A stretch of DNA of 64,000 nt from Candidatus Bathyarchaeota archaeon (GTDB lineage: Archaea; Thermoproteota; Bathyarchaeia; Bathyarchaeales; Bathycorpusculaceae): NCBI GenBank assembly GCA_963707955.1, contig OY970176.1:2112001-2176000 (forward strand). The letters run 5' to 3'. The notes under the pieces are model-generated. The model was not told the DNA's origin. It searched no databases and saw only the letters and a list, made by a program, of their open reading frames with translations. Positions within the stretch are counted from its first letter, which is position 1. The number at the start of each line of letters is the position of its first letter. A program made the translations under genes and the position numbers. Positions 4,187 to 29,256 of the stretch are shown here, piece after piece.

Positions 4187-4372
4187 GTCTACCAGGTTCC
4201 GTTAACTCTTAGGGGGCCTAAAGAAGTTTGTTAACCAGGGAGGCTTTTTTTGCATTGTTCTCGTTACTTTCGCATTGAACAGAATTACGAATAGAAGATA
4301 TTCCTTTCTTCACCAGAACGACGGACATCCAACTTGAAAGTTGTCCCCGAACCCAGTCTCAAGATTTCAAGC

Positions 4373-5173
4373 CTACGCAGGCTTCCTGCCCCAAGCACTG
4401 AACATAGTAGCTCCAAGATAATCGAATGCCCGATCCTTGAGTAACCGCTGAACAGTGTCATGCTGCTCCTACGTAAGCAATCCTGCCGCAATCATCGGTT
4501 TTGCTCCCATTAAGAGCGTTGCTGCGTCAAACTGCGCCAATGAGTCGCCTCCTCGACAAGCAAAGGTCAATCCTTCTTGAGTCACATCGACAAGTCCAAG
4601 CTGTTCTATAAGACTGCGCACTCGACGTCCCAAATATGCATCAACCACTTTCCTCTTCCGCAGAAAATCGACACTATCTCTCCAAGTTTTAGTGAAAATG
4701 GCGACAGAAGGGTTCGTGATGTCTGTGGACAACATAGAGCCATAATCCCATTCCTCAGCCATCAGCCAACCACCTGGGCGCACTGCGTCAGCCATTCTTT
4801 TCAACGCTTTTTCAGGTTCAGGAAGTTGCATGAGTAAGGTGCGGCAGTAAACCAAGTCGAATTGTCCTGTCTCTAGATCCTCTTTTGTGATGTCGTGTTG
4901 ACGTATTTCGATGTTGGGAGCGCTTAGCAGTCGAAGGAATCTCGTGTTAATCTCGGTGGCCACGATTCTTCCTCCTGGGCCTATACGTCTTGAGAGCCAT
5001 TGTGCCACTGAACCTGTACCTGCACCGACTTCGAGGCATTTCCAGCCTTCGGAAACACCTATCATTTCAAGATGACGTTTTGTCGAAGGGTCAAAGATTC
5101 TCTCTAATATTCTGAGGCGATTAAGCTCTACTTCATCTTTCTCGTCGGTTGCGATGTACCGATGTTCACTCAT
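4373..5173 (-). pseudogene. Class I SAM-dependent methyltransferase interrupted by an in-frame TAG at 4469-4471
   Basis: LEVGAGTG motif I, FDLVYCR, LKRM..AVRPGGWL. After the TAG the frame continues 31 aa (EQHDTVQRLLKDRAFDYLGATMFSAWGRKPA*), a typical ending for this family. Confidence 0.75.
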
Positions 5174-5691
5174 CTTAACTCCTTCTTACGTTTATTTTGA
5201 CGTATTTATGAATTTAGTGTCTTTGAGCTATCACTTCAAAGGTACAGAGAATCGATCGGTTCCAAAAACTCTGCGAGCAAAATGAACACCAATCGGTCAA
5301 TGATGATTCTCCATCGAGGCTTTCTTGATTGGAGACAACCAATTCTCAGGCGTTGAGTTACCACCGATTTTGGCTTGTTACGCAGGATCTTTCCATTCAA
5401 TGCAATGTGAGGTCCACAGAGATGATCGAAAACGTACCTGGCACTAGAACAGCTTCCACTGCATACCAGAAAAAGAGACGAGGCGATGTGGCACTACCTA
5501 AGACGGAACAGACACAACTTGTTATCCGCTTTGACCCAACTCAAAAGTCATAACTGACTCTACTTGGTAAAAACCTATTTGGTTAACATGGACAAACATT
5601 TATCCATGCAAGACCCGAAGAGTTAACAGAACCGTCTACCATAAACTATTTTTCGTCCCTTTCCTTCAGATAGTTTCAGGAGCACGATTCT

Positions 5692-6249
5692 ATGGATAGA
5701 AAAGCCGTAATAGTTCTTGACATGCTCAACGACTTCGTCACTGGAGACTTAAAGTGCGAGAGAGCGTTGCACATAATCCCAAACTTGAAAAAACTTATCG
5801 TGGCTGCCCGCAACCACGGAGTGCCAATCATCTACAGCAACGATGCGCATCTTCCTCTGGACGAGGAGGTCGTTGCAAGGTGGGGAAAACACGCCATAAA
5901 GGGCACTGCGGGAGCAGAAGTGATTCCCGCGCTGAGACCGACTAGGAAGGATTATGTCGTCGAAAAGAGAACGTACAGCGGTTTCCATGAGACAGGCTTA
6001 GACATGCTGTTGAGAGGCTTGTACCATGGAGAAGGCGTCAGGACCGTGATCCTCACAGGCTTGCACACGAACATATGTGTCAGACACACGGCCGCGGACG
6101 CTTTCTTCAGAGGATACAAGATCACAGTGGCAGAAGACGGAGTCGAAGCCTTCACCCAAGAAGACTATGAACAAGGACTCAAATATTTGAAAGACATCTA
6201 CAACGCGAAGATAATGACAGTTGAGCAGATAATAAGAGAGTTCGGTTAG
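5692..6249 (+). CDS. Isochorismatase/cysteine hydrolase family (nicotinamidase-like)
   Basis: VLDMLNDF, EKRTYSGF, GLHTNICVRHTAADA catalytic motifs. Confidence 0.93.
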   Translation: MDRKAVIVLDMLNDFVTGDLKCERALHIIPNLKKLIVAARNHGVPIIYSNDAHLPLDEEVVARWGKHAIKGTAGAEVIPALRPTRKDYVVEKRTYSGFHETGLDMLLRGLYHGEGVRTVILTGLHTNICVRHTAADAFFRGYKITVAEDGVEAFTQEDYEQGLKYLKDIYNAKIMTVEQIIREFG

Positions 6250-6428
6250 GATTACGCGGCTGTTTTCCCAGCGTGGCCCACACGCGTTTTTTCGTGGAAA
6301 AGAAGAAATTCAAACAAGAAATCGGGCAAGCCATGAGCGAAAGGCACTTTTTTTTGTCTTTTTTGGTAATAGAATTCAAAAAACAGGAAAAAATTTAAAA
6401 GCAACATATGCATGAAATACGGGAAGTG

Positions 6429-6507
6429 AATGAGGGAAATGGAAGAATTAATTTCTGCTCCCTTCTCTCCTTTCTCCCTATCGAAGTGACAGACCATTTC
6501 CCTCATT
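6429..6507. repeat. 14-bp perfect inverted repeat (AATGAGGGAAATGG / CCATTTCCCTCATT) with ~51-nt spacer
   Basis: Arms at 6429-6442 and 6494-6507; imperfect extension to gaagtg...cacttc. Confidence 0.55.
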
Positions 6508-6681
6508 TACACTTCTTTAGTACCATTCTGACCACTTATAGCTTATGGAACAATCTTCTAGTCGCACCAGAAATAATGAGACCCTGTTGACTCAAATGTT
6601 TCAGCTTGGGAATATGCCTTTTTAACTTAGCGCCCAAGATAATTCAGTGGCTCGCTCCGACAGTTTGGGTTGATGACATAC

Positions 6682-6801
6682 ATGGTCAGAAAGATCTTTT
6701 GCGATAGGTGTGGATGCGAATTAAAGCCCTGCGAACTCATTCAATTACTGGACCGGGATTTGTGCTCTATCTGCAGCAGAGAAGTTGTTAGAGCCAAGTG
6801 A
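6682..6801 (+). CDS. Small zinc-finger microprotein (39 aa), below the ORF-track cutoff
   Basis: MVRKIFCDRCGCELKPCELIQLLDRDLCSICSREVVRAK*: CxxC...DLCxxC. Confidence 0.6.
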   Translation: MVRKIFCDRCGCELKPCELIQLLDRDLCSICSREVVRAK

Positions 6802-7050
6802 GGAATTTCTCCAGCGGCGCAAACACGTAGGAACAGTTTTGTTACACATCATGCAACCTGCTGGCGAGCCAAAACCAGTAATTCAACATTTTTCAAATTG
6901 CGATGTTACAGGAACAATCTGTTCGTGACAAACTCGCAGTAAGACATGTGCGTGCGCCCAATCATATGCGGCGGGATATGATGTATGTTTTATTTTTTGA
7001 CGCAAAATGTTATATGTTGAGTCAAATATAAAACACCGCGGGGAAACGCT

Positions 7051-10000
7051 GTGGCTTCTGTTAGGCATCAGCGTGGTAAGGTTTTTGGAATCGCGCTGTG
7101 CGTCGTGTTGGCTTTGTCGGTTTATCCTGGAATTGTGGGCGTGGTGAGTGAACTGTTTGGGACAGGCTTTATCGAATCGATGAGGCTGTCAAGCCAATCT
7201 GGCTCAAAGAGTGATGGTCGGTTTGCGATGGGCGACACCATCAACGTTTCAGCCGCGGTTACGCGTGGCAACTTCTACCAGTTGAACGTGTACGACAACA
7301 ACGACCGCTTGGTGTTCGAGGAGGACGGGACGGTGAAAGACTCCGACGTCAACGCCGTCGTGCCTATCCTCCCGCCGTCTTTCAACGCCAGCCGAACGTA
7401 TAGCTTGGTACTCGACGAGGGCGTCGTCAACACCCCTCTTCTCGGCGTGGGCGCCTACGACTCTTCCTCCACGGCCTTCACAGTCGTCCAGGGCCTGACG
7501 AACCTGAACCTAACGTCAGACTACAACGCGGTCACCCACGAGCTTCGAGCTGTGGCCCTCCTCACCACCAACGATTCCGTGCCCGTCGTAAACGAAACGG
7601 TAAGCCTCTACATGCAACCCGACTTGGACGTAGCCCTAACCAGCAGGGGATGGATCTGCTTAGGCCAGGTCTTGACGGACGCGAACGGTACAGCGCTGTT
7701 TGACGTTGCCGTGAACGCGAAAGGCGGCGATTACGGGCTACAAGCAAGGTTTGCCGGAGACAACAACTTCGAATCGTCCACTTCCCAGAACGCCACTCGG
7801 TTCGTCGAAGTCTCGCCAGTGCCGTTCCTACACATAGTGGGCGTCACGAAGGTCGAAAACGCAGTCACCACGCTCCTGCAAGTCACCGACAGCTACGGTT
7901 TTCCGCTCGGAGGAAGACTCATCTCGTACGAAGACTTGACGTCGGGCGGGCAACCCGTCTACGCCATCAGCAACGGTGCCGGCTACGCCACCGTAACCTT
8001 CAACGTCAACGCTTCCCTAAGCCTCGTCAACTCGAGACTCACAGTGCTGACAGACCCGTACACTTCGGAGCTTCGGGCCCTTGCAACGCTGAACCTGACG
8101 GGGTCAAACCCGTCTTTTGAAGCTGCATCTGGCACGAGCGCATCTGAAGGGCTGTTAATAGGCGCAGCAGCCGAAGCGCCCGCTGGCAACGCTTCCGGCG
8201 TGGACAATCCCACCTCTTCCGCGAGTGCGGACTTGAGCCAGACGGCCGTGAAATCTGCCGCCGCCCCCGCCGACACCGGTCTCCCCGACATTATCGTAAG
8301 CTTGAACGAGAACCCAGCAACGGCTGACCTGCCCGAAACATTCACCGTTAAGTTCTCCTCATACACATACCTCGGCACTGGCGTTTGGTTTAACTTTTAC
8401 GAGAATGATTCCAGTCACCTCGGGTCAGCCGGAGCCACCGAACACACCTACCGTTTTCACAACGATAATGGGGGATGGACTTTCATATACCAGTACACGG
8501 GGAGTCTCGTGTGGGAACCGGACTATTACGGAGGATGCTGGCTCTTCGTGAACGCCACGGACTCTAGTGGGCAGGATTTATTTGCTCAAGGTTCCAGCGA
8601 CTCGTTCAACATAAATCCTGCGCCCGTCAACCTGGTCGTTTATTATCCTGAAACGTTTTGCGGCGACACGTTGGACCTGTCTGTTGCCCTTTCCAGGTCG
8701 AGTGTTTACGAGCAGGATGATTCTGGCTTCTTCGTGTGCACCACGCTGGCGCCGAATGTCCAGTGGGCGGGCAACACGTACATGCTGGACTGCGGAGACA
8801 ACTCAACGCTGATTGACGTTTACGTGAACGGCTCCGAAACCAGCTTCGTTCCTAACCCTCAGGGTTTCTGCACGGTTCAGACTGATCTGGGTCCGTTGGG
8901 AAACGGCGGGTGTCTGAACGTGACCGCATTCGTCAACGGCAACAGCCGCTTCGAAGCGGTCACCGTGAACGACATTTTCAACTTCACAGAGACCAACGTT
9001 TCCGACGTGCCCTCCGCTGGCAGCGGCAACTTCGACCTGAACTATTCCCTCAGCGTCTCCAACGGTGCCGAGACAACCTACTATGACACGCAAAACTCTA
9101 TTAACGCCACCGCCTCCCTGTTTGACTCCCCAGTCTACAACGCTTCAGCCACGGTCACCACCGCCACACTCCTAAGCCGCTCAGCCACCAACAGCACCGG
9201 ATGGGTACAGATCCCCGCTGGCTGCAACTACCTCCGCGTACAGTCCGCCTGCCTCCTTCAACCCTACATGGCATCGCCACTAGCAGACGTTGATCATGAC
9301 GGATGGGTTAGCCCTCCTGGTGATAGACACGATGTAATGGAGCATGAGAACTCGACTATTGGCGATTTACTGTATGATTGGCGTTATGACCTCAACGGCG
9401 ACGGTGTGATAAACGATACTGACGTTGCCATAGTAAATGCAAGCGTTGGCCATTGTCTGGCGTATTTGGTTTCTGGGAATTCCACGGGTAACTATACTGC
9501 TAATTATGATTTTAGTGGTGTGGAAGTTGATTTTAACACGGGCCAGAACGCGTTTTTGGACAGTCTTGGCTTCGCAAGTGTTCCTGCTGGCGCCGAGTGG
9601 CTTAACATGTCGATTGGAGGCGTTGTAGAATTCTTTGCTGCTAATCCGGCTCAGAACGTTTCCACCGACAACGTCGGCGTTGCCAGCGTAGGTTGGTGCC
9701 CAGACACTGTGGGATTGGACGTTGTTCAGGCCAAACTGCCCTCAACGTTCAACGTGACTGTATCGAACTCGGCCTCTCTGCCTAATTACGCGGAGATGAA
9801 CGCTTCCTTGAACGTTGCCAACTACTTCTACGTGCTGAAGAGACCTGTGGACGTCACTGTCGACCTGCAGCCCAACGTCACCTATCCTATGAGCGAGTCT
9901 GGGAACTTCACTGCGAACGAATTAGACCAAGTTACGGGGCAACCAGTTCCAAATTTGCCCTTTAACCTGACAGTGACAAGCGTGAACGGTTGCGTTAATG

Positions 10001-11941
10001 AGTCGGGTTATCTGCATTTTGACGAGTCTGGAAACTATGACTCCCTCTGGGATTTCTGGGCAGGGGGAGGCGGTGTTTACAACGTTGTTTACAACGTGAC
10101 TGTTTCGTGGACAGAAGGGGAGTATAACGCGGGAGGTGTGTGTAGCAGTCTTTTCGATTTCAGGTGGCCCACGAACATCACGTCGCAAGATGGCAACGTG
10201 ACAAGCGCCGAAGCAAACGTTAACGAGACTCTCAGTTTTGATCTCATCAACAGCAACAGTTCTTCCGGGCTGTCGGGGGAGCTTGTCTTCTTCGATGTTA
10301 ACGGCAGTTCATACAACGACGGCACGTGCACGCCCTTCAACAGTGTCTATAACGGCACAACCTTGCAGAACGGAACCGTTTCGTTCACGTGGCCAGTGCC
10401 CAGCGGCAACGGGACGTACGCTGTGACTGCCGTGTTCAACGGTAACACCGACTATTGCCCCTGCCAAGCCTGCATGGCCGTCACCGTCAAAGCGGTGCCC
10501 CTGGCAGTCTTGTTCAGCGTCACGCCAGACGAGTTTGAGTCAGGAACCACCGTGCTGCTGAATGCCACCATCATAGACCCCTCCGCAGATGCGCTCTTCA
10601 CAAATCAAAACGTGAACGTCAACTTCACCAGCGTGTACTCTAACGGCACCATCTCGCTTCTCGGCACGAACTGCACCAACTTGACGGGCATGGCCTTTTG
10701 GAGCCTGAACTATACCTACAACAATGGGACCGCTTGTGCCTACAAGGCTGACATAGTCCCAGACTACGCGAACGGCAGCCTCCATCAAGGCATCGCCAGC
10801 AGCCCCGTCCAGCTGACTGTGGCCAACCCCACCGTGCTCCTATTGAACGTTTCCCGCAACAGCTGTTCCACAAACCACATCATAGAAGGCTGGCTGATGT
10901 GCAACGGCACTGGCGTCAAGGACGAAACCGTGACCACCACCGTTAACGGCCAATCTTTCCAGAACACGACAGACAAGAACGGCTACTTCAACTTGACCCT
11001 CAACCTCCAACCAGAATGCCCCAACGGGCAAACCGCCTCCCAGAACGTCACCTACACGATAACAGCCAGCTTCGCAGGCGACCAGCCCACCAACGCCACT
11101 GCCTACGACAACACGCTGGACGGAGAACAGTACCCAGCGTGCACAACCGTACAGTACGGCTACGAACCCAGCAGCAACACCACTATGCTAACCGTCACCC
11201 CACAGTCCACGCAGGCTATGACAGCGACAGAGACGCCTAAGCAGATGGAGCAACAAGCTGAAAGTAACGGGTCGTTGAAGGTGTGGGTGGGACCTGGCAG
11301 TGGATGGTTAACCTGGTTTAAGACACACGTCATGGTTCACGTTGACTGGCTTAACCTGACAATAAGCGCGTGGGTGGGCTTTCCACTGGGAGCCGGAGTA
11401 GACGAGTGCAACGGACTCGAGAACGCTTTCATCGACGCTTACGAGGGCGTTCCGGACAGTGCGATAAGTGTCACCCAGAGCGCAGTGATAAACGGTATAG
11501 CTACGGCAGCAGCGGCTCTCTGTGACAGGATGGGTGGCAACCATAGCCACCATGGGACCAGAAGATCCATTGTACTGGGTTGCTCTAGGAATCTATGTTG
11601 GTGCCATGTCGGCCTCCTTTGGATTGATTTATGCATTGGCGGACAGGTCTCTTTCGAGGTCGATTCTTCTGGGAGTGGGAGGCGCGTTAATAGGCTTCGT
11701 GATAGGCATATATAGCGGGAATTTCATAGCTAACTGGTGGATATCTGCCTCCTTGTCATTGTCCACTGGATCCACGCTTCAGATCGCGGCTGCCAAAGCA
11801 ACCGTTAACTATTTCGGTTCCTTTGGCATCAAGCAGGTGGCCTATGTGCTAGGAGTCGCGTCTTGGTTCGACGTTGCATTCACCATCGCCACCGGAGCGC
11901 TCGGCGCAGTGGCATTTGGTATGGGTGAGTCAGAGGGCTAG
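7051..11941 (+). CDS. Giant secreted Ig-like repeat protein with internal dockerin-like motif and hydrophobic variable C-terminal tip (putative polymorphic effector); +1 frameshift at ~11521
   Basis: N-terminal hydrophobic signal; many NxT/S sequons; Ig-like repeats (A.FAGD, F.GNTDY); DVDHDGWV...YDLNGDGVINDTD. ORF 7051-11715 joins ORF 11522-11941 if one T is removed at ctc[t]gtg, giving a continuous Ala/Gly-rich hydrophobic tip. Confidence 0.8.
10290..11283 (+). repeat. Conserved 3' body of the giant gene (copy 1 of the repeated module)
   Basis: FDVNGS...YNGTT...DYCPCQ...FSVTPD.FE.GTTVLLNATIIDPS...QGIASSPVQLTV.NPTVLLLNVSR...TASFAGD.PTNATAYDN...ETP is repeated at ~12820-13809 and partly at 15274-15497. 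Confidence 0.9.
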
Positions 11942-11948
11942 CCGGATT

Positions 11949-12428
11949 ATGGACAGGAATCGTGGTGGAGGGCCTCCGCAAATCTACGGAATCATCTTCA
12001 TAATATTCGTTACAGTCATCAGTCTCTTGGGATCATGGCTTTCGCTGGTTGTGGTGAGGGATCTTGGGTTGAAAGAAGAGAAGGCCTTCCTTGCGTTTGC
12101 GTGGCGCGTGGTTTTCTTTAGTTTTCTATTCATCTTTTTCCCGATGTCGGTTGCCATAGAAATCATGTTTAGTCGATGGAAAAAGAGAAAGTTGCGTGTG
12201 CATAGCGTTCTCGCAGTCGCTCTATTGCTGTTCGTATACATGCTTGTCCTGTCTCTAATTGGGTTCATTTTTGAAGAAGTGTTTCCTAGTCTTTATTTCA
12301 CCAATGAACCTTTTCTCGGCCTGACTGGACTGGTGCTGGGCTTTATGGTGATGCTCCCCCTGTTGATCGTTGTGTTTACAGCTAGAGCCCGAAAAATCCA
12401 TGCTTACATTAGAAAAGCCTTCGAGTAA
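11949..12428 (+). CDS. Small 4-TM membrane protein, putative cognate immunity/partner of tip 1
   Basis: ATG 7 nt after the stop of tip 1; four hydrophobic helices with basic loops (RWKKRKLR); no recognisable family. Confidence 0.75.
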   Translation: MDRNRGGGPPQIYGIIFIIFVTVISLLGSWLSLVVVRDLGLKEEKAFLAFAWRVVFFSFLFIFFPMSVAIEIMFSRWKKRKLRVHSVLAVALLLFVYMLVLSLIGFIFEEVFPSLYFTNEPFLGLTGLVLGFMVMLPLLIVVFTARARKIHAYIRKAFE

Positions 12429-12562
12429 GAGGCATTATATAGCCGACGTAATTAGCTCGCACGGTTTCCTCATATCAGATCCACACGCCCTCTATTTACT
12501 ACGTGTGCGGGAAGAGAAGCGCGCGCTACAGAGAAAAGGGGATAGTACAAATTCACCCCAGT

Positions 12563-12589
12563 GGGTTTCAAGTCCCTGCGGGCCCGCCA
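12563..12589 (+). other. Isolated tRNA 3'-end fragment (att-like scar)
   Basis: GGG-T-TTCAAGT-CCCTG-CGGGCCC-G-CCA resembles a T-loop, T-stem, acceptor 3' strand and CCA, with no tRNA 5' half upstream. A hairpin follows at ~12594-12614. Confidence 0.55.
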
Positions 12590-12768
12590 CCCACGGAGCG
12601 CATTAGCGCCTCCGCGCTCGGTAATGCCCCTTTCTTTCTCCATTTTAAAGCTTGCTAGGCGTCTTAGAGCAAACCTTTAATTGGACTTTCGGAATCAAAA
12701 CGTGTCAAGTCCAACTAGCGCTTCATCTTACTCACAGGTTGCTCCATGGTTGTTGCTTTTATGATTAG

Positions 12769-14337
12769 CGCGCGCTCAACGGAATCAACTCTTCCTATGC
12801 GAATGAAGAGCCTATCTGCTTCGACGTCAACGGTAGCTACTTCGATGGCAGCACAGTCAACGTCTTTAACGCGGTCTACAACGGCACCACTGTACCACCA
12901 TTGCGCAAGGCCCAGTTGACTTGGTACGTGCCCTACGGCGAAGGAACGTACGATGTGACTGCTATGTTCAGCGGTGACAACTACGATTGCCCCTGCCAAA
13001 CCAGCATCGTCGCCAACGCCAGCGCGGTGCCCCTCAGAATCCTGTTCAGCGTCACCCCGGACAATTTTGAAAACGGAACCACCGTGCTGCTGAACGCCAC
13101 CATCATCGACCCCTCCACGGGAGCGCCCTTCACAAGCCAGAGTGTGAACGTCAACTTCTACAACGTGGACTCTAACGGCGTTCAGCAGAAACTAGGCACG
13201 AACTCCACCGCCGGCGGCATGGCCTTCTGGAGCACGACCTACACGAGCAACGGAACCGCATACGCCTACAAGGCCGACATAAACGCGGACTCCGTGAGCG
13301 GTGTCCTCCGTCAAGGCATCGCCAGCAGCCCCGTCCAGCTCACCGTAGGCAACCCAACCGTGCTCCTGCTGAACGTTTCCCGAGCCAACTCTTCCACAAA
13401 CCACACGATTGAGAGCCAACTGCTGAGCGATGGCACGGGCGTCTCGAACGAGACCGTGACCATCACCGTTAACGGCCAATCTTTTCAGAACAAGACAGAC
13501 CAGAACGGCTACTTCAACTTAACCATCGACCTCGAGCCCGAATGCCACAACGGCACTACCGCGTACCAGAACGTTACCTACACGATAACAGCCAGCTTCG
13601 CAGGCGACGTGCCCACCAACGCCACCGCCTACGACAACGCGCTCGACGGCACCAACTACACAGCATGCACAACCGTTCAGTACGTTTACGAGCCCAGCAC
13701 CAACAGCACAATACTGACCGTAACCCCACAATCAACATTGACGGCACTGCTGACCGAGACGCCTCAAGAGATGCAGAAACAAGCAGAGCAGAATGGGACG
13801 CTCAAGGTCAAAAACCAGTGGAGCTGGTGGTATCCATGGTACAGAGTCCATTATCAGTTTATCCCAAATGGTACTGTTGAATACGATTATGGCGTCAGTC
13901 CGCTACCTTTTGGAAATACGCTAGCGTACACCAAATATATGAATAATACCGTGGTCAACTTCGTGCTGAACGCCAACTTGGCCATACTTAGCGCGATTAC
14001 TCTCTCTGAATATCAAGGATACATCATCAGTATGCTTGGGCCCGCGGGATTTCTAGGTGCACTCATAATCTCTCTTACTACAAAGCTGGGCGCATTGGCC
14101 GCAAACTGGAACTCAGTCGGGGGACTTGAGAGCATTTTGGCTGGCAGCGCAGTTTCTATGGGAGTGGGCCTACTGAAAAATTTAGGATCAATCATCGAGA
14201 TAGTGAGCGAAACGATGGGCATGGCTGAAGTTGGTTTCGGAACCCTGTACTGCCTGCTCAGCGTGCCTATAAATATAGCATTTTGGATAGTTATCTTTGA
14301 CAGGCTCAGTCAATTGGGTGCTGGAGTGAGGTTCTGA
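12769..14337 (+). CDS. Orphan cassette 2: 5'-truncated copy of the giant-gene body with a different hydrophobic C-terminal tip
   Basis: Frame is open from just after TAG 12766-12768 (…INSSYANEEPICFDVNGSY…), with no signal peptide and homology starting upstream of the first start codon. High similarity to 10290-11283, diverging after ETPQEMQKQAEQNGTLKV. Confidence 0.8.
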   Translation, partial: RALNGINSSYANEEPICFDVNGSYFDGSTVNVFNAVYNGTTVPPLRKAQLTWYVPYGEGTYDVTAMFSGDNYDCPCQTSIVANASAVPLRILFSVTPDNFENGTTVLLNATIIDPSTGAPFTSQSVNVNFYNVDSNGVQQKLGTNSTAGGMAFWSTTYTSNGTAYAYKADINADSVSGVLRQGIASSPVQLTVGNPTVLLLNVSRANSSTNHTIESQLLSDGTGVSNETVTITVNGQSFQNKTDQNGYFNLTIDLEPECHNGTTAYQNVTYTITASFAGDVPTNATAYDNALDGTNYTACTTVQYVYEPSTNSTILTVTPQSTLTALLTETPQEMQKQAEQNGTLKVKNQWSWWYPWYRVHYQFIPNGTVEYDYGVSPLPFGNTLAYTKYMNNTVVNFVLNANLAILSAITLSEYQGYIISMLGPAGFLGALIISLTTKLGALAANWNSVGGLESILAGSAVSMGVGLLKNLGSIIEIVSETMGMAEVGFGTLYCLLSVPINIAFWIVIFDRLSQLGAGVRF

Positions 14338-14340
14338 GCG

Positions 14341-15111
14341 TTGGACAATTTGCATGCGAAAGGCTGGCATTGGACTAAACAAGTAGTCGGGTTGTTGCTT
14401 ATTGCAGCCGGAATACTTGTGTTCTATTTTGCCGCCGCGGTCATTGCTTCAACCAGCCTGACTGGTGCCCTTCTCTCTGCTTGGGTGGCTTCGGGGTTGA
14501 TTTGCGCAGGAAGTTTCCTTGTTATTCAGTTTGACATGCGTCGTTATTTACGATCGGTGCTTCTTGTCTTCGTCGTTCTGCTTGGGTGGACCATGGTTTT
14601 GCTGTTGCAGCTTCCGGGCAACTTTCAGATATTCATGTTCGCGTTTACAAGTTTCATTTTCGGCTTGTTCTTGTACTACTGGAAAAAGAAACCTGTAATT
14701 TCATGGAGATCGCCAAGCGTTCACAGACGCCTATTAGCCATTGCTGGAGCTGTTCTCCTTGTGCCCAGCTTCACACTATTCATTATGTTTGTAAGCATCG
14801 TGGATGACTTGGGCTTGTTTGTTGGTTGGCTTTCCATGTTGCCTGCAAGTTTAGGCCTCTTGGTAGGTTTTCAACTAGTTAGAGGAAAGAGGCTCAAAGA
14901 TGCGGTATTAGCTTGGCTTGTCTTGGATGCCATTATGCTGTACCCGTTCCTCGTTGTTTTGCCTACGGCATTCAGCATGCCGATAGCGTACCAGATCGTC
15001 GTGGAGGCTTTGATTATCGTCCTGACAGTGGTAGCGTTTGTGGTCGGGGTGCATAGCTATCGCAAAAGGTATAGCAGGCGTATGTTGAAGCAGGTAGCGC
15101 GCGCGTGGTAG
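14341..15111 (+). CDS. Multi-pass (~8 TM) membrane protein, putative immunity/partner of tip 2
   Basis: TTG start 3 nt after the cassette 2 stop; almost wholly hydrophobic with basic tail; not obviously similar to partner 1. Confidence 0.75.
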   Translation: MDNLHAKGWHWTKQVVGLLLIAAGILVFYFAAAVIASTSLTGALLSAWVASGLICAGSFLVIQFDMRRYLRSVLLVFVVLLGWTMVLLLQLPGNFQIFMFAFTSFIFGLFLYYWKKKPVISWRSPSVHRRLLAIAGAVLLVPSFTLFIMFVSIVDDLGLFVGWLSMLPASLGLLVGFQLVRGKRLKDAVLAWLVLDAIMLYPFLVVLPTAFSMPIAYQIVVEALIIVLTVVAFVVGVHSYRKRYSRRMLKQVARAW

Positions 15112-15263
15112 TGCGTCGTGTGTCGTGTGTGTTCGCCTTGGACTTGCCCGCTCTCTCTTAGGGTTAACGGCATTAAGGTAAGGTGGCTGAGACGAGCGTG
15201 GGCGGCTTGTGGGAAGGCGGCTTCAGTTTCATTCGACTTCCCAGCTATAGAAGACAACGCGAT

Positions 15264-15856
15264 AACGTAACAGTAACAGCCAGCTTCGCAGGCGATCACC
15301 CCACAAACGCCACCGCCTACGACAACACGCTAGACGGAGAACAGTACCCAGCGTGCACAACCGTCCAGTAGGGCTACGAACCCAGCAGCAACAGCACAAC
15401 GTTAACCGTGACTCCACAGTCTACTCAGGCGGCGATGCTCGCAGAGACGCCTCAACAGATTCAGCAGAACGCAACAAACAGCGGGTGGCTTAGTGTCTAC
15501 AGCCAGTGGAGCTGGTGGTACCCATGGTTCAGATTTCACTTTAAGTTTACTCCAGACGGCGCCTCGCATTTGACATAGGAATTTCCGCTTTGCCCTTAGG
15601 CAACGCAGTGAAAGTTGGGTCAGCCATGACAGGTGTAACTGGTTTGTTGTCGAAAGTGATGGTTTCCATTACCAGTGCAATAGCTTTGTTTGACAGGCTT
15701 GGGAATATTGTTGCTGTCGCTGGTCCTGAAGCATTTGCTGGTGCGCTTATGGTTTCATTTACGGCCAAGTTATCGGCATTAATCGCAAACTATAATTCGG
15801 CTGACGGGCTAATCAGTGCATTTTTTGGCACTGCTGCTCGGATTCTACGTTTATAG
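15264..15856 (+). pseudogene. Orphan cassette 3: degenerate body fragment plus tip paralogous to tip 2
   Basis: NVTVTASFAGDHPTNATAYDNTLDGEQYPACTTVQ*GYEPSSN...ETPQQIQQNATNSGWLSVYSQWSWWYPWFRFH. TAC>TAG at 15369-15371, -1 frameshift at ~15562, then AFDIGISALPLGN...GPEAFAGALMVSFTAKLSALIANYNS. Confidence 0.8.
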
Positions 15857-15899
15857 CAAGCACAGACGAGCTAAACTACGCAACGCGACATCAAGCTGA
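15828..15899 (+). pseudogene. Probable 3' remnant of a third membrane partner gene
   Basis: ALLLGFYVYSKHRRAKLRNATSS* is a last TM plus basic tail like the end of partner 2 (FVVGVHSYRKRYSRR), and begins where tip-2 homology stops. Confidence 0.45.
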
Positions 15900-16025
15900 T
15901 AGAGGAACACAGCAATCTATGAGCGCGCGCACGCCCAAAATAGGACAGAAACCTAGAGCCAATTGCTGACTGAGACGCAACCTGTAAAGGTCTCGGCTTT
16001 TAAGGGCACGCGCATTTGGGAAAGG

Positions 16026-16120
16026 TGGGCCCGGGGCGATTTGAACACCCGACCAACAGGTCTCTCAACGCATTGAGCATTTATGAGCCTGGCGCTCTAA
16101 CCTAGCTGAACTACGGGCCC
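16026..16120 (-). tRNA. tRNA with CAT anticodon (probably tRNA-Ile2, otherwise Met) with 20-nt intron at 16062-16081
   Basis: GGGCCCG acceptor, D-arm AGCTAGGTTA, CCAGG-CT-CAT-A, intron at 37/38, GGGTG-TTCAAAT-CGCCC, CGGGCCC-A. The GGGCCC acceptor fits archaeal Ile better than Met. Confidence 0.88.
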
Positions 16121-16230
16121 AGACCTTAGTTTGATCTCTTTAGTATGCTGTTTCAGAGTCAATTTAAACGTTTTCCGCATTTGGGCCGCTGTCATGAAAG
16201 CGCGTGTGCCCATTCAGAAACAGCTTGTAA

Positions 16231-17124
16231 TCATGAATGACTGCGGCCTTGAGTGCGTTCATAATGATACAGGTATTCTTGTGCGTAACCCGCGTACTTG
16301 CCAAAGTAGTGTCTTCCAAACAAATTCAGCTGCTTGTATCCTGACTCGCTGAGGGATTTTTGACGAGAGATGGTGTCCACAAACTCGCTCGGAAAACTAC
16401 TGGCATAATGCCTCAAAACCGCTCTTCTGATCCATACATCCACTGGAAAAGCATCGAGTTTCTCAAGAGAAAAAAGCAGGACACAGTCCGCCACCTTGGG
16501 GCCTACTCCAGGAAATCTGAGCAATTCCTCTTTTGCTTGGTCATAGGTTGCTTTTCTTAAGTGTTCTAGTTCATAGTCGTTTTTGAAGATTTCCTTGGAG
16601 GTTTCTGAAACGTACTTCGCTCTGTAGCCGAGTTCGCATTCTCTTAGATTCCTTGAAGTTGCCTTGGCCAGTTTCATCGGGGTCGGAAACGTGAAGAAAC
16701 TGTAACCATCAAGAACGACTTCTTTCCCGAATTTTCTGGAAAGACACAACAGCATCCTTTCTATCGCTGCAATATTTTTGTAGGTTGCGCAGATGTATGA
16801 GATGAGACATTCCCATGGGTCTTGCCGAAGAATGCGGAGACCCTTGAACTCTTCAATCGCTTTCCCTATGTGCTTGTCCTTGTTGATTTGAGAGAAAATC
16901 TCTGGCAGATTATCGTTCAACCCGAAATATCTTCTGACAAAGTCTTCACTTGCATTTTCAAACTCCAGCTTGTCTCCGCTCTGTCGAACTTTGAAAACAT
17001 TTTCTCCAACTGTACCGTACCACCAATCGTCCTTTTTTTTCCACCTAAACGTCTGTCCACAACACAAGGTGAAGTCCAAATCAAAAGGAACTGAAAGATC
17101 CAATTGAACCATATTCGATCTCAC
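16231..17124 (-). CDS. 8-oxoguanine DNA glycosylase (OGG1/AlkA-like HhH-GPD)
   Basis: TLCCGQTFRW, GLRILRQDPWECLISYI, LGYRAKY, PGVGPKVADCVLLF, FPVDVW, AGYAQEYLY. Confidence 0.92.
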   Translation of the reverse strand: MRSNMVQLDLSVPFDLDFTLCCGQTFRWKKKDDWWYGTVGENVFKVRQSGDKLEFENASEDFVRRYFGLNDNLPEIFSQINKDKHIGKAIEEFKGLRILRQDPWECLISYICATYKNIAAIERMLLCLSRKFGKEVVLDGYSFFTFPTPMKLAKATSRNLRECELGYRAKYVSETSKEIFKNDYELEHLRKATYDQAKEELLRFPGVGPKVADCVLLFSLEKLDAFPVDVWIRRAVLRHYASSFPSEFVDTISRQKSLSESGYKQLNLFGRHYFGKYAGYAQEYLYHYERTQGRSHS

Positions 17125-17193
17125 GTTAACCTTTCTTCAAAGTAGTTTTAAACCCTTATTATTCAAGACCGCAGGAAGCTGGCAACTTCCAGG

Positions 17194-19377
17194 TCAGCTG
17201 AGGATCTCGTCTACAAAAGCCTTCGGTTGAGGAACTTCCGCAGGCAAACCTCTTCCAACGCGGAGCTGTGTGACAACTTCAGCCTCAAGCTTTTGAGCCA
17301 TTTTCTCCCAATGGTCAAAAGTCAGCTGCCAAAAAACATGGCCGGAAGTTGCAGCACGCATTTCTGCAGGAAGGCCCAAAGTCTGTGCGACTGGCACGTA
17401 GCCCGTGATGATTGCTGACTGTCCTTTCTGCTGAGTGGCCTCTATTTTTCCGTGTCTGCGAGTTATTATCTTGGAGCACGTGCCAAGCCATTGCAGTGGA
17501 ACGGACACTTCGACTTTGTAAATCGGCTCCAAAAGTGCGGGGTTAGCCGTCAACAACGAACCCAGAATTGCGCGGCTTATTGCCCGCGTCACCTGACTTG
17601 GTTCTCGATTTTCAGGGTTTCCGTCAAGCTTCACGTCCATAAGCTTTACTTTCACGCCTCTCAAAGGATGTTCGCTAAGGGGCCCAGTTCTACATGCCCA
17701 ATAGAACCCTGACACAACATCGTTCTTCACCTCTTGAAGATGCTCAGCATGCTTAGTTGAATCTACCAGAACGTTGATGCGCTCGTCCACGGCCCAAATC
17801 TCTCCCTCTCCACTTTTTCCAAACTTGCTTTTACTGTATGTGAGGCTTTTTTCTAGGACTGTTATCGCTTTGCTTTCAAGCGGCTCTATCTTTATCCAGA
17901 ACTTGTTACGCTTGTTGGGGCTGTTCGTCATCACCAGTGCTCCACTCTTGAGAACAGTTTCTCTATACGCTGCAATCGGACTAGTTGCTTCAAGCTTGAC
18001 ATCACCAATGTACTTCTTCAAGAAGTTCATCGCGACCTCCAGGTGAAGTTCGCCCATCCCGCTAAGCAAGTGTTGACCCGTTTCAGTATCCAGCGTTGTA
18101 ATGAGGTTTGGGTCTTCAATCGAAAGTTTTTTCAGTCCCTCAAGAAGGCTTTCTAAGTCTTTAGGGTTCTTCGGTTCTATCGCTATCGTCATGACAGGCT
18201 CTGAAACATACTGGGCATTCCCAAACGGAATGCTCATGCTCTTGTGTTCAACATCGACAACCGTTTCCCCGGCCCTTGCCGATTCAAGCCCTGTCAAGGC
18301 AGCAATGTTGCCAGCCGAAATAAGGCTCACAGTTTCCCTGAAAGCGCTCATGTAGAGGGAAACTTGTTGCACGCAATGGACTTTGCCTGCGCCAACTAAG
18401 TAAACATCGTCGCCCTTTTTCACAGATCCTGAGAAGATCCGTCCAGTGGCAACCAAACCCTCGTTCTGAACCACCTGAGCCGCAGTTATGCCTATCACCG
18501 TTGGTCCTTGATCGTCGCAGTTTGCCATTGCCTGACCGATTTCTGACGTCAAACTGCCTTTCCAGATCTTCGGTACGCGGTATCGTTGGCTTTCCAGAGG
18601 GCTAGGCAGGTTCTTCACGACCATGTCAAGTATGGCTGTGTAGAGGGGAACAACTTTCGAGAGTTCCCGCCATGTTTCATGCTCATAAGCGTCCGCGATG
18701 TCGCGGTCACTGAATCTTATGCCCTTCTTCTCAGCTATTTCCAGAGTGAATCCCCACCTGTGAAGTGCTGAACCGAAGACAACACTCTGTTTTGAAGGGT
18801 CAACTTTCCATTTGGCGCTGAACCTTGGCTCGCCATAGATCTCGATGATGTTGTTGAAGTCGGTGATAATGCGGACAAATTTTTTCTGAATCGCATCGGG
18901 GGAAAGCTTGAGCTCCCTTATCAGACGGTCAACCTTGTTTATGAAGAGAACAGGTCTCACCCTCTCCTCGAGAGCTTGACGCGTGACAGTTTCTGTCTGA
19001 GCCATAACCTCTTCCACAGCGTCCACGACGACGATTGCCCCATCAACCGCGCGTAAAGCCCTGGTCACTTTACCAGTGAAGTCTACGTGCCCAGGAGTGT
19101 CGACCAGGTTTATCAGGTAAGGGGACCCGTCGACTTCGTGCAGGAATGATATGTTTGCTGTTTTAATCGTGATTCCGCGTTTTTGTTCTTCTTCTAAATA
19201 GTCGAGAACTCTTGCTGAACCCGTTACGCGTGATGGCAGAAGTCCCGCTTCGATCAGCAGCGAATCTGTCATCGTTGTCTTTCCATGGTCGATGTGGGCC
19301 ACTACGCAGACGTTGCGAATACGCTCTTTCTTGCCCATTAGCTTCAGCAATTCTGCCGTCTGTCGAAACTTTGGCAT
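17194..19377 (-). CDS. Elongation factor 2 paralog (aEF-2p) lacking the diphthamide motif
   Basis: AHIDHGKTT, RGITIK, DTPGHVDF, NKVD, GMGELHLE; domain IV HEDxxHRG replaced by DGNPENRE. Confidence 0.9.
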   Translation of the reverse strand: MPKFRQTAELLKLMGKKERIRNVCVVAHIDHGKTTMTDSLLIEAGLLPSRVTGSARVLDYLEEEQKRGITIKTANISFLHEVDGSPYLINLVDTPGHVDFTGKVTRALRAVDGAIVVVDAVEEVMAQTETVTRQALEERVRPVLFINKVDRLIRELKLSPDAIQKKFVRIITDFNNIIEIYGEPRFSAKWKVDPSKQSVVFGSALHRWGFTLEIAEKKGIRFSDRDIADAYEHETWRELSKVVPLYTAILDMVVKNLPSPLESQRYRVPKIWKGSLTSEIGQAMANCDDQGPTVIGITAAQVVQNEGLVATGRIFSGSVKKGDDVYLVGAGKVHCVQQVSLYMSAFRETVSLISAGNIAALTGLESARAGETVVDVEHKSMSIPFGNAQYVSEPVMTIAIEPKNPKDLESLLEGLKKLSIEDPNLITTLDTETGQHLLSGMGELHLEVAMNFLKKYIGDVKLEATSPIAAYRETVLKSGALVMTNSPNKRNKFWIKIEPLESKAITVLEKSLTYSKSKFGKSGEGEIWAVDERINVLVDSTKHAEHLQEVKNDVVSGFYWACRTGPLSEHPLRGVKVKLMDVKLDGNPENREPSQVTRAISRAILGSLLTANPALLEPIYKVEVSVPLQWLGTCSKIITRRHGKIEATQQKGQSAIITGYVPVAQTLGLPAEMRAATSGHVFWQLTFDHWEKMAQKLEAEVVTQLRVGRGLPAEVPQPKAFVDEILS

Positions 19378-19552
19378 GCCTCAGACCTTCTTCAAGGACC
19401 GTGTAATCTTCTGATGTCACAATTGTCATAACTTCGAGATTTGCTTTGTTATCTGGACACTTCTGGCATTACTAACCAGAGAAGATTTAGAAAGAGAAAG
19501 GGTTTAAGGCTGTTAGGAGTTTTCGATTTGGTTTGAACTGGCGTGATATGTC

Positions 19553-20123: not shown

Positions 20124-22682
20124 TTGAGAAAGGAGAAAGGAAAATTGAAAAAGGAAACTGCATCAGCAATAGTGATAACGCTGCTCATCGCAAGCATGCT
20201 CTTTTCGGCGACTAACTTCGTGAAAGGTCAGACGGACACGCCTGACCTAGAGGTCTCTCTGAGCTCTTTCAGCCCGTCCATAATTAACGGCACGTATAAC
20301 CATCTCACGAATGGAAGTTCGACGGTTCTAAACGCCACCGTAACCAACGTGGGCAATGCCAGCGCGTCTAGCGTAACCTTGCAGCTTCTGGTCAACGGCA
20401 CCGTGACTCTAACCGCTGTAACACCGACGTTGGATATCAACTGCACCTTCTGGGCTGCCTACTTCTGGAACCCGACGGATTATGTGCCACCTGTAACTGA
20501 CTACAACCTGACTGTTTATGCCCTGCCTGTGACTAACGAGACAAACAACAACATCACGAGGTGGATCCGAGTTTGTCCGAACCAACCTCCTACAGCGATC
20601 TTCAACATGACCTGGTCACCACCAAATCCGCCCTTGGGACCAGTCGAAAATCAGACCGTCACTTTCGACGCCTCCAACAGCTACAACCCGCCTTCGACAC
20701 CTTCTGACTGGAGTACCATCGTCAATTACACGTGGAATTTTGGAGACGGCCCCAGCGTGAACTACTCTTACCCCACTACGACTCACAAGTACACGAATTG
20801 GAGGAACTACACCGTAACCCTCACATTGGTTAACAATGAGAACCTAACCAGCTTGCCCGCATCGCAAAACATATCGGTCTACGCTCGTCCAATAGCCAAT
20901 TTCACAGTACTAGGCAAGCTCTATGTCAATAAAAACCTGACCTTTAATGCCTCAACGAGCATCGACCCCGACAACAACGCGACTTCCACAAAGGGCATTG
21001 CCAGCTACAACTGGGACTTCGGAGACGGCAACACAACAACAGGCTGGCCTAACGCGACCATACTTCACCCGTACAATGCAGAGGGTAACTACACCGTTAC
21101 TCTCAATGTCACCGACTTCGACGGCCTAGTCAGCGACGTAGTAAACGAGTCGGTGTATATCGGTTCAGGTCAACCCATCGCCTTCTTTACACCGCCTCAC
21201 TCACCGTGTTACGTTGGTGATAACTTGACCTTCGACGCCACAAACAGCCTTGATCTCGACAATCCCACTGGTCCCACACGCGGTATCGCCAACTACACCT
21301 GGAACTTCAACGATAGCACGCCTATAATCACCGTATACGTCCCCACCATCTTACACGCCTTTCAAAGCCCCGGAAACTACAATGTGAATCTGACCGTGAC
21401 CGACTCTGATCAGGGACTAACCAGCTGGACAAACGCTAATGTGAGTGTTTCCTACCAGGTCTTTTTAAACGCGACGGACAGTGTAACCGGAAGCCCGAAC
21501 ATCGCGCACAACCCTGGCGACTATTTTAATATCAGCATAACAGTCACAAACGTGACAGACCTATTTCAATATGAACTCAATTTGACATGGCCAGGCACCA
21601 AGTCATATCCTATATTTGACAGTGACCCAGTTGCTGTGAGTGGCGGTTTCTTGGCACAGAATGCCACTGAAGACTTCGTGCCCACACCTTCAAAATATCA
21701 AGGTTACGTTTACATAACAAGTACACGTCTTGGTACCTTGAATGGAGTGAACGGCAGCGGAACTCTGGCCATAATAACCCTTCACGTCAACGGTACCATG
21801 ACGGGAAACTGTACCTTCCAAATAGTTTCCTGCTTGCTACAGAATTCTACGTTTGCCAGCATTAATTGCACACTGGGAGACGGTCACTTCTTCACTACTA
21901 AACCAGTTGCAAACTTCACTTATTTGCCTCTTACACCCACGGTAAACACGGAAGTATACTTTAACGCGTCAAACAGTTACTGCCCAGACGGTGGAAATAT
22001 CACTTCCTACCAATGGGACTTTGGTGATGGCACGAGTGACACTGGACCCATTGTAAGCCACAATTACACTAGCTCAGAGCCATTCAACGTGAACCTAACC
22101 GTTACGGACAGCCAGTCACTTCTTACGTGGTCGATGAACAAAACGGTGGAGGTTAATCCAGGCCAAGTTTTCATCACCGACATTGAACCCGACGAGCTTT
22201 GGTTTAACAAAGCTTTGAATATGTTCCAGACTGCGGGGGCACTGCCCATGAACGTGACAGTGACGAACCCGGAAAATACTACTGTGACCTTCAACGTCAC
22301 CGTGTTCTTTGGCGGCCTTAACGTTACGGAGCAGCTTGTTACCGATCTTCCGCCTGGCGTATGGACCCTAAATCTAACCTGTTCCATAACGGGTATTAAC
22401 CCGGGCAACTACTCTATCCGCGCTCAACCGTCATGCACAAACGGAACCAATTCGTGGACCGGACCTATGTGCACTAATGGTACAGTCAGGGTTTGCTTGG
22501 CAAGCGACGTTAACGGCGATTATAAAGTTAACATGGGCGACGTAATGCTCATACTCGCGGCGTTCGGGTCGAAAGCTGGGATGCAAAAATATAATGCCAT
22601 CTGCGACCTGAACGGTGATGGTAAAGTTGACATGGGCGACATAGTCATCGCCTTAAGCAACTTCGGACACCACTACCCATAA
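20124..22682 (+). CDS. Secreted surface protein: CARDB + multiple PKD + cohesin-like + CARDB-like + C-terminal dockerin
   Basis: Signal peptide; four FDAS.S..P...I..Y.W.FGDG-type PKD repeats; cohesin-like FNISITVTNVTDLFQYEL...GSGTLAIITL; DVNGDYKVNMGD...DLNGDGKVDMGD...NFGHHYP. Confidence 0.88.
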   Translation: MRKEKGKLKKETASAIVITLLIASMLFSATNFVKGQTDTPDLEVSLSSFSPSIINGTYNHLTNGSSTVLNATVTNVGNASASSVTLQLLVNGTVTLTAVTPTLDINCTFWAAYFWNPTDYVPPVTDYNLTVYALPVTNETNNNITRWIRVCPNQPPTAIFNMTWSPPNPPLGPVENQTVTFDASNSYNPPSTPSDWSTIVNYTWNFGDGPSVNYSYPTTTHKYTNWRNYTVTLTLVNNENLTSLPASQNISVYARPIANFTVLGKLYVNKNLTFNASTSIDPDNNATSTKGIASYNWDFGDGNTTTGWPNATILHPYNAEGNYTVTLNVTDFDGLVSDVVNESVYIGSGQPIAFFTPPHSPCYVGDNLTFDATNSLDLDNPTGPTRGIANYTWNFNDSTPIITVYVPTILHAFQSPGNYNVNLTVTDSDQGLTSWTNANVSVSYQVFLNATDSVTGSPNIAHNPGDYFNISITVTNVTDLFQYELNLTWPGTKSYPIFDSDPVAVSGGFLAQNATEDFVPTPSKYQGYVYITSTRLGTLNGVNGSGTLAIITLHVNGTMTGNCTFQIVSCLLQNSTFASINCTLGDGHFFTTKPVANFTYLPLTPTVNTEVYFNASNSYCPDGGNITSYQWDFGDGTSDTGPIVSHNYTSSEPFNVNLTVTDSQSLLTWSMNKTVEVNPGQVFITDIEPDELWFNKALNMFQTAGALPMNVTVTNPENTTVTFNVTVFFGGLNVTEQLVTDLPPGVWTLNLTCSITGINPGNYSIRAQPSCTNGTNSWTGPMCTNGTVRVCLASDVNGDYKVNMGDVMLILAAFGSKAGMQKYNAICDLNGDGKVDMGDIVIALSNFGHHYP

Positions 22683-25381: not shown

Positions 25382-25500
25382 TCAAGAAATCAAATCTAGT
25401 GGAATTAGTATTAAAGACTACATCCTAAGCTATGAATAGAATATCAGACAGAAAAGGAGTTCAATCATAGCTTAGTATGTTAATAACAGACAGAATCTTT

Positions 25501-26034: not shown

Positions 26035-26297
26035 TCTGAATCATCACACGTTTCATTGAATGTTTCAGTTCTTATGGTTTGTGATTAACCACTCTAGGCT
26101 TAAATCAACTAAATCTTCAGTGGAAAACTTCTATGGAGTCCCTGAAATCTTCAGTCATTGGATGAAAAAAAGCCTAAGCATAGTTAATAATCTAACAGCT
26201 TTCTCATATCCCTCTTTCAGCCTGACTAGAGCCTTCTATATGACAAGGTATAAACACTTAAACATCCAATGATATTTATCGACTGCAGACGATAGTA

Positions 26298-26897: not shown

Positions 26898-26942
26898 AAA
26901 CTCTGTTTGTTTTCCCCCACACTCATTTTTGAACCCCTAGTT

Positions 26943-26975
26943 TGTCTTCTCTTGCTGTGCAGATTTAAGATTTCT
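26943..26975. repeat. Intergenic repeat, copy 1 (TGTCTTCTCTTG-CTGTGCAGATTTAAGATTTCT)
   Basis: 21-bp core identical at 27759-27779; ~24-bp near match at 29221-29244. Confidence 0.8.
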
Positions 26976-29250: not shown

Positions 29251-29256
29251 CTCTTA

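Follow-up and report, generated by a model that had tools for sequence, protein, structure and literature searches.

Analysis of a 64,000-nucleotide (nt) stretch of the genome of a Candidatus Bathyarchaeota archaeon (assembly GCA_963707955.1, contig OY970176.1, positions 2,112,001 to 2,176,000 of the forward strand; referred to as the window) identified a bathyarchaeal locus that, judged from its sequence, represents a polymorphic system of C-terminal cassettes. It is constructed like the polymorphic toxin loci of bacteria, and its carrier, end domain, partner families and host lineage all appear to be new. A long gene for a putatively exported carrier protein with immunoglobulin (Ig)-like repeats ends in a variable hydrophobic tip and is directly followed by the gene of a membrane protein with several transmembrane (TM) segments, termed the partner; start-less cassettes with other tips lie downstream. 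This description rests on the anatomy of the locus, the linkage between tips and partners, the cassette arrays, the recombination breakpoints and the character of the locus as a genomic island. The Bathyarchaeia are uncultured and are among the most abundant archaea of sediments. Contact-dependent antagonism and the discrimination of self from non-self are barely known in archaea, and polymorphic toxin systems there are predictions. In bacteria, the CdiA-CT/CdiI, Rhs and MafB loci combine an exported carrier and its variable C-terminus with a cognate downstream gene and orphan modules. The locus described here adds a concrete, recurrent module with an end domain of ~190 amino acids (aa) and at least nine partner families, and about 80 natural tip-partner pairs become usable for the comparison of cognate with non-cognate combinations.

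The carrier gene of the window, A1, starts at a GTG at position 7051 and stops at 11939-11941 (Table 1). A single secreted gene at 7051-11941 had been proposed in the original prediction, which was made from the DNA letters. A long ORF (open reading frame) of secreted type with an N-terminal hydrophobic stretch is indeed present, but the window sequence as given splits it into frame 1 (7051-11715, 1,554 aa) and frame 2 (11522-11941), and the span of 4,891 nt is no multiple of 3. Short-read contigs of four public runs (X1 to X4) were aligned to positions 10200-16000; a single study produced all four, and X1 is possibly the source sample itself. The base at 11520 is missing in every contig that covers the site (35.1 of 35.1 depth in X1, 4.31 of 4.31 in X2 and 7.43 of 7.43 in X3, with no cover in X4). 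As the contigs of three runs all lack this base, the break is an assembly indel, and the real A1 is intact with 1,629 codons. False frameshifts of this kind are possible in other long genes of the same genome. The gaps of X4 over tip 1 and P1 and its loose contig end at 11204 give no evidence of an alternative allele, as the sequence of this loose end resembles the paralogous locus described below.

The original prediction had itself named mis-assembly of one gene as a possible origin of the two downstream copies, A2 and A3. The assembly of the window does contain one or more errors (an extra base at 11520 and a second single-base indel, relative to the short-read contigs, at 12560), and copies 2 and 3 could in principle represent collapsed or duplicated reads. 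However, contigs from the independent short-read assemblies span 11121-13474, 13579-15335 and 15335-16000 and cross the unique copy junctions with zero mismatches, and therefore the tandem layout is not a collapse. The copies also differ by 20-25% in their bodies and wholly in their tips, and the same layout was found again on dozens of unrelated contigs, which makes an assembly artefact scarcely credible.

For the genes downstream of A1, the proposed arrangement proved largely accurate. The 4-TM partner gene P1 begins with an ATG at 11949, placed 7 nt after the A1 stop. The start-less second copy, A2, has its first possible start codon at a TTG at 12901 and carries a different tip, and the ~8-TM gene P2 begins 3 nt past it. 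The third copy, A3, is decayed: a single in-frame TAG and a change of frame interrupt it, and the tip profile matches three separate ORF pieces. The remnant of a third partner that had been expected at its end was not recovered, as tblastn searches with 16 partner proteins returned nothing below E 0.3 after A3.

Table 1. Features of the cassette locus (window positions).
Feature	Position	Strand	Remarks
A1, full-length carrier gene	7051..11941	+	N-terminal signal/anchor, Ig-like repeat body, junction, tip type 1 (predicted)
Putative N-terminal hydrophobic signal or anchor of A1	7075..7161	+	Residues 9-37, Kyte-Doolittle window 2.48
Dockerin type I-like module in A1 body	9385..9516	+	PF00404, 21.9 bits (19.4 in first scan), cut-off 22.9
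Shared body end (homology arm)	10383..11250	+	Direct repeat families D1-D3; repeated in A2, A3 and the second locus
Junction and tip type 1	11221..11938	+	Hydrophobic helical end, GxxxGxxxGxxxG run
P1, partner of tip type 1	11949..12428	+	159 aa, 4 TM
Upstream-region remnant of a full-length gene	12613..12766	+	Directly before A2; 88% identity to B1 upstream DNA
A2, start-less orphan cassette	12769..14337	+	522-aa open frame: last ~350 aa of body, junction, tip type 2
P2, partner of tip type 2	14341..15111	+	256 aa, ~8 TM
A3, decayed third cassette	15177..15856	+	Body end and type-2-like tip; three frame pieces

The relationship between the copies points to recombination at the end of the carrier body. 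The first ~1 kb of A2 repeats the homology arm of A1 at 79-81% nucleotide identity and then diverges; at the protein level, the A2 body is 64-74% identical to A1 and to B1, and tip 2 begins at about 13819. B1 belongs to a paralogous locus 1.9 Mb away in the same genome, which consists of one 2.35-Mb contig. This second locus comprises the intact carrier gene B1 (222439-227223, 1,594 aa), the membrane-protein gene PB and, at 228749-229366, a fragment of a body end that contains two TAG codons. A1 and B1 share 75% identity over 1,456 aa, and their ends show no BLAST match to each other. In windows of 60 nt, the identity of A1 and A2 ranges from 70 to 92%, that of A2 and B1 reaches 93-100% at 13248-13600, and identity drops abruptly to ~40% at 11245-11275 in A1 and at ~13848 in A2. 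This pattern reads as a set of recombination breakpoints at the body-end junction. Since A2 is far closer to the distant B1 than to its neighbour A1 at 13248-13600, the comparison indicates gene conversion between the two loci, which would be recent over this interval (B1 counterpart at about G000:C1 226000). In addition, the 154 nt that precede A2 (12613-12766) match G000:C1:222145-222298, located 141-294 nt upstream of the B1 start. Because this DNA corresponds to the upstream region of B1, A2 is a former full-length gene from which the promoter-proximal part and ~3.3 kb of coding sequence have been lost.

Tip 2 (185 aa) was used as a query against 1.84 billion representatives and retrieved only 68 proteins at E<=0.001. 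Nearly all matches that reached the end of the query (39 of 40, counted by hand) stop at most 6 residues from the C-terminus of the protein. An alignment of 30 tip sequences contains the near-invariant positions P59, W60, R62, H64, D76, G78, G127, W150, L219 and G220 and describes one domain family that includes the B-type tips of the second locus. The tips are therefore not unrelated domains: a single profile fits all of them, tip 3 belongs to the tip 2 type (35% identity), and tip 1 is related to G236c3 (E 9e-5), the tip of a cassette from a different genus that has a P1-like partner. By this alignment, the tips are divergent members of one new ~190-aa domain in which a conserved junction is followed by a hydrophobic helix bundle. 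AlphaFold2 modelling on the tip alignment (mean predicted local distance difference test score, pLDDT, of 80) places a helix at residues 35-45, four strands at 48-90 and five helices at 92-218, four of which are 18-30 residues long. Across the family, the four long helices have mean Kyte-Doolittle values of 0.95-1.43 and 1.3-3.6 charged residues each; they are thus predicted to be hydrophobic, with no clear status as obligate transmembrane segments.

No relative of this domain was recovered from the resources searched, NCBIfam and PADLOC included. Pfam gave nothing consistent on the 30 tip members, a PDB search with the tip profile yielded no matches, and a Foldseek search of the PDB with the tip model returned nothing at E<=0.001. 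A wide fold search with the same model (VIA) produced generic helix bundles only, the top one at Z 8.0. A pyocin S5 entry at Z 6.4, with model residues 126-222 placed on chain residues 206-309, was listed amid dozens of unrelated ones. In the ESM Atlas, the tip was recognized at a low level, in unnamed clusters only.

A survey of related loci allowed us to analyze the linkage between tips and partners. Loci from relatives were combined with 67 metagenome contigs, the latter collected with an 8-row tip alignment, and all stop-to-stop ORFs were compared with the tip profile, which identified 180 ORFs. Whole tips with a closed 3' end were present in 112 of these, 106 of them with at least 400 nt of contig downstream. 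An adjacent ORF of at least 90 aa with three or more hydrophobic (TM) segments follows 101 of these 106 tips. The five exceptions include the B1 partner, which has 2 TM segments by the threshold used, one frameshifted gene, one 684-aa ORF that may be a fusion like P0006, and two unexplained cases. In P0006 (673 aa) and at positions 4397-6449 of L079, a type-2 tip continues within one ORF into a P2-like 8-TM partner, which is either a natural fusion or a frameshift error of the metagenome contigs. The spacing between tip and partner genes ranges from -82 to +24 nt and is mostly -4 to +3 nt.

After removal of identical and >=90% identical pairs, 79 non-redundant tip-partner pairs remained. Their partners fall into nine BLAST families (E<1e-6) with 27, 21, 11, 8, 3, 3, 3, 2 and 1 members; P2 belongs to the largest and P1 to the family of eight. 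Many tip types exist and each is tied to one partner family, the outcome that the original prediction had named as support for its model. Pairs with related partners also had related tips in 269 of 273 cases, and the nearest partner relative was among the top three tip relatives in 67 of 78. The bit-score matrices of tips and partners are correlated with a Mantel r of 0.78, a value reached by none of 2,000 permutations, and a cross-tabulation of nine tip clusters with the nine partner families is near block-diagonal (adjusted Rand index 0.64-0.76 over 7-12 clusters), although such statistics overstate independence and specificity because adjacent genes that are inherited together diverge together. 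The modularity of the system is a stronger point than these correlation figures: carrier bodies of a single genome share 75-100% identity but bear different types of tip and partner, and the same tip-partner type is found on different bodies in other genera. Both halves of P2 match a 149-aa partner that follows a type-2 tip in the genome G059, and P2 looks like a duplicated 4-TM unit. Relatives of P1 were detected after type-1 tips and as orphans. Profile-to-profile comparisons of partner families gave probabilities of 5% and 1%; from these shallow alignments, no relationship between the families was detected.

The layout that had been likened to polymorphic toxin loci was encountered again in the surveyed contigs. 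Twelve loci with identical ORF sizes were flagged by eye as duplicates before arrays were counted. Among the 18 non-duplicate contigs with a gene of at least 1,000 aa, 15 carry further tip ORFs downstream on the same strand, and two of the three exceptions stop at the contig edge. No cassette was found ahead of a 5'-closed gene of at least 1,000 aa on any surveyed contig; on L083, a tip that is open at its 5' end precedes a tip ORF of 741 aa. Arrays extend to five to six open cassettes of mixed partner families, with at least five consecutive ones in G236. A strongly hydrophobic start segment is present in 12 of 13 5'-closed full genes compared with 1 of 47 short cassettes, and in this lone cassette the segment resembles an internal strand. 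Partner-like ORFs away from a tip end account for 20 of 111; some of them lie at contig edges and several form partner-partner tandems. In G029, a solitary PB-like gene is located on contig C12 in an unrelated neighbourhood, and G029 and G236 each contain one orphan partner inside an array. The genome analyzed here also holds a lone degraded P1-like partner fragment with one internal TGA and no tip nearby (G000:C1:1006608-1006934).

Such arrays might also arise as by-products. The tip would then be a polytopic C-terminal anchor that holds an adhesin in the membrane of the producing cell, the partner would act as a co-anchor or insertion helper, and the downstream copies would be decaying remains, irrelevant to any conflict, that tandem duplication and gene conversion had left behind. 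The four long hydrophobic helices are connected by very short loops and in this respect are similar to an integral membrane domain, and tips are conserved between genera as much as the body is (39% identity for the tip and 36% for the whole match of A2 and its counterpart in G059). A2 retains upstream DNA of a former full gene; this cassette, if no other, thus originated from a duplicate that underwent deletion, and A3 has decayed. Decay nevertheless fails to explain the intact partner adjacent to nearly all whole tips, the five or six open cassettes of different families per array, the sharp identity breakpoints at the junction and the intact orphan partners in unrelated contexts, and a dockerin module in the carrier would offer an alternative means of attachment. 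We regard this explanation as unlikely, though not negligible.

The carrier body was searched for domains that could explain its display. Besides the dockerin, the Pfam scan of A1 gave weak Ig-like matches alone (Big_3_5 and MG4). As originally predicted, YD/RHS, haemagglutinin and Hint domains are missing from the Pfam matches, and PAAR, LXG, MafB-N and VENN-type domains were likewise not found (E<=0.1 for A1 and E<=0.01 for seven relatives). Neither A1 nor its relatives gave a Pfam match to a CdiB-type outer-membrane transporter or a haemagglutinin-repeat filament; to our knowledge, an outer-membrane transporter is impossible in an archaeon. The carrier thus appears to be devoid of known toxin-trafficking domains and to possess a family-specific conserved junction in their place. 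NCBIfam gave sub-threshold matches only (the Ca_tandemer adhesin repeat at 18.7-20.9 bits, cut-off 50, and one permease far below threshold), a PADLOC scan returned no match, and a PDB sequence search with A1 found none.

The dockerin type I-like module of A1 scores just below the Pfam cut-off, and the paralogue B1 (25.3 bits) and the relatives P0003, P0048 and P0016 (24.8-37.9 bits) exceed it. Several carrier relatives contain Big_1, and some have a CBM96 insert. Two cohesin ORFs and 15 dockerin matches over the cut-off were identified in the same genome, which suggests that this archaeon possesses a cohesin-dockerin system for surface display, and display of the carrier on a cohesin scaffold is a reasonable inference. 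Compared with cohesin-dockerin surface proteins, the likeness lies in the dockerin type I of the carrier family and the cohesin ORFs of the same genome; the differences are that no enzyme module is present, that the A1 dockerin falls below the cut-off and that docking is deduced. Further dockerin type I modules occur elsewhere in the window at 463-609, in a 1,522-aa frame that runs off the window start, and at 22503-22646, in an 852-aa ORF (20124-22682).

The reading that we put first, and to which we give an even chance, is that the tips are polymorphic effectors that act on membranes upon cell contact and that the partners are their cognate immunity proteins in the membrane. It is placed first because the architecture of a polymorphic toxin locus is present, except for a known trafficking domain, and because a hydrophobic helical end next to a multi-TM partner recalls membrane-depolarising toxins. 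For export, surface display, delivery, toxicity and immunity, we infer the following course. The N-terminal signal would export A1, which would form a long rod of Ig-like repeats, probably held at the surface through the dockerin-like module. The rod would end in the conserved junction, modelled as one helix and a four-stranded sheet with the residues P-W-x-R-x-H ... D-x-G, and the junction would carry the tip, in which four to five hydrophobic helices are bundled over ~130 aa. The tip occurs in many divergent types, each accompanied, within a few bases, by its own type of membrane protein with 3 to 8 TM segments. The signal-less downstream cassettes are each composed of a body-end arm, another tip and its partner, and recombination across the arm could let them take the place of the expressed tip. 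When cells touch, the tip would enter the membrane of the neighbour and damage it by depolarisation or pore formation, and a neighbour that makes the cognate partner would be protected, as the partner would neutralise the tip within the membrane. In its most complete form, this would become a contact-dependent inhibition (CDI) system of the Bathyarchaeia's own, in which a dockerin-displayed Ig rod presents a new family of membrane-breaching helical tips, cognate multi-TM proteins confer immunity and a silent cassette library lets a lineage switch weapon and shield by recombination; this version we hold tentatively, at slightly less than an even chance. If it is true, the family would be the first such archaea-specific delivery family and would set strain-level social boundaries in sediment communities.

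Several observations weigh against an effector, in addition to the joint divergence of neighbouring genes and the conservation of tips between genera noted above. The tip helices are long and just moderately hydrophobic, and they could equally well form a membrane anchor in the producer. A glycine zipper, of which the count in tip 1 is 9 compared with 3.4 in shuffled sequences, was rejected as a family-wide mark, since the enrichment is confined to tip 1 and a small number of other tips. Searches of Pfam, the PDB, Foldseek and VIA revealed no sequence or fold relative of the tip among known toxins. Most CDI and Rhs ends are toxin folds without mutual relationship, whereas the tips form a single homologous family. 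Partner families of type B and type 1 were detected in tip-bearing genomes only (4 and 3 of 401 genomes), and therefore there is no sign of genomes that carry immunity alone.

The comparison with bacterial polymorphic toxins reveals extensive similarity of layout. A large carrier for export whose body is conserved and whose C-terminal end varies, a small cognate gene directly downstream, start-less cassettes that share a homology arm, orphan partners and a variable island all have their equivalents in the predicted archaeal system. In contrast, two-partner secretion (TPS)/haemagglutinin repeats, RHS/YD, PAAR, LXG and Hint elements are not found here, the variable ends form one homologous hydrophobic family and are not assorted enzymes, and the junction motif is new. 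Pore-forming colicins, whose pore domain has ten helices, are countered by immunity proteins with 3-4 TM segments, and the EC93 CdiA-CT/CdiI is another membrane-depolarising pair. For TspA/TsaI of S. aureus, it is reported that a membrane-depolarising toxin is opposed by polytopic membrane immunity proteins, that immunity genes of differing sequence occur in strings and that tandem paralogues recombine (10.1101/443630, PMC9484751). The predicted hydrophobic helical C-terminus and multi-TM partner of the bathyarchaeal system resemble both TspA/TsaI and the colicins, and the strings of non-identical partner genes and the recombination between tandem paralogues are also shared with TspA/TsaI as reported. 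For the tip, the searches of Pfam, the PDB, Foldseek and VIA gave no sequence or fold match to colicin-type or other solved toxin domains, and carrier and export route would be different as well.

Within archaea, the VARTIG proteins of Thermococcales are described as large signal-bearing Ig proteins with a recombining hypervariable C-terminal Ig domain, a common DNNxxxGG end motif and smaller downstream homologues that align to the C-terminal part (PMC8416519). The authors liken them to polymorphic toxin systems, leave their function unknown and report no counterpart outside Thermococcales (PMC8416519). With VARTIG as described, the bathyarchaeal locus shares a large archaeal Ig protein, a C-terminus that varies through recombination and smaller downstream homologues; it differs in that the Ig body is conserved and a helix bundle is variable, each bundle with a cognate multi-TM partner. 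The DNNxxxGG motif is absent from the ends found here, which read ...GESEG and ...GAGVRF, and by these sequence features the locus is not considered a VARTIG member. Predicted archaeal polymorphic toxin systems are cited in the VARTIG publication from a 2019 mBio survey (PMC8416519). Our literature search found no description of this system or of polymorphic toxins in Bathyarchaeia; the 2019 mBio survey and supplementary tables lay outside the search, and a prior listing is possible.

The comparison with VARTIG also brings in non-lethal recognition of self or kin, or selective adhesion. Tip and partner would then match each other as ligand and receptor, located in the membrane or at it, cells of the same allele would recognize one another, adhere or exchange material, and the cassettes would switch identity. 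The co-varying tip and partner types, the cassette arrays and the accessory island fit this explanation equally, and one homologous tip family with a conserved scaffold is what would be expected of a receptor that varies in specificity, and not of assorted toxins. The VARTIG authors offer this reading of their module as an alternative (PMC8416519). However, tip-less orphan partners and arrays with several partner types fit protection against many foreign tips better than a single identity, and the variable part is modelled as hydrophobic and helical, with no exposed binding domain. Both the pairing as ligand and receptor and the switching of identity are thus judged improbable, though by no means negligible. 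If the tips are non-toxic, a co-diversifying membrane pair with a library of recombination cassettes would represent a new archaeal system of identity or variation.

The locus is a 9-kb, GC-rich accessory island. The GC content of the carrier parts is 0.53-0.57 compared with 0.43-0.46 in the flanks, and in G001, a genome of the same genus, flanks that are ~92% identical (5634-6944 and 15969-19505) enclose 681 nt in place of the 9.0 kb. The ORF held in these 681 nt is called flavodoxin-like on visual inspection of its translation and not on a family search. No tRNA or integration site was found in positions 1-30000 of the window. With A2 as query, matches were obtained in 5 of 60 relatives. The tip profile detected the domain in 9 of 401 genomes of the class, the genome analyzed here (G000) included; they belong to two families of one order (f1, 6 of 103; f6, 2 of 11). 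Six named loci in a species collection all come from metagenome-assembled genomes of Bathyarchaeia or Bathyarchaeota.

The neighbours of the locus are an isochorismatase-like gene and an AGOG-like gene. Beside the island, positions 4194-5634, with a methyltransferase-like ORF at 4469-5173, have no counterpart in the syntenic G001 and represent a second small indel. A stretch of ~60 nt at 12528-12590 has 85% identical copies at G000:C1:1000198-1000258 and 1271593-1271653; at 12544-12587, the depth of the contigs is raised and loose ends occur, possibly reflecting a small dispersed repeat. Finally, positions 25001-31000 are low in GC (0.37-0.41 compared with ~0.48 elsewhere) and may be another foreign island.

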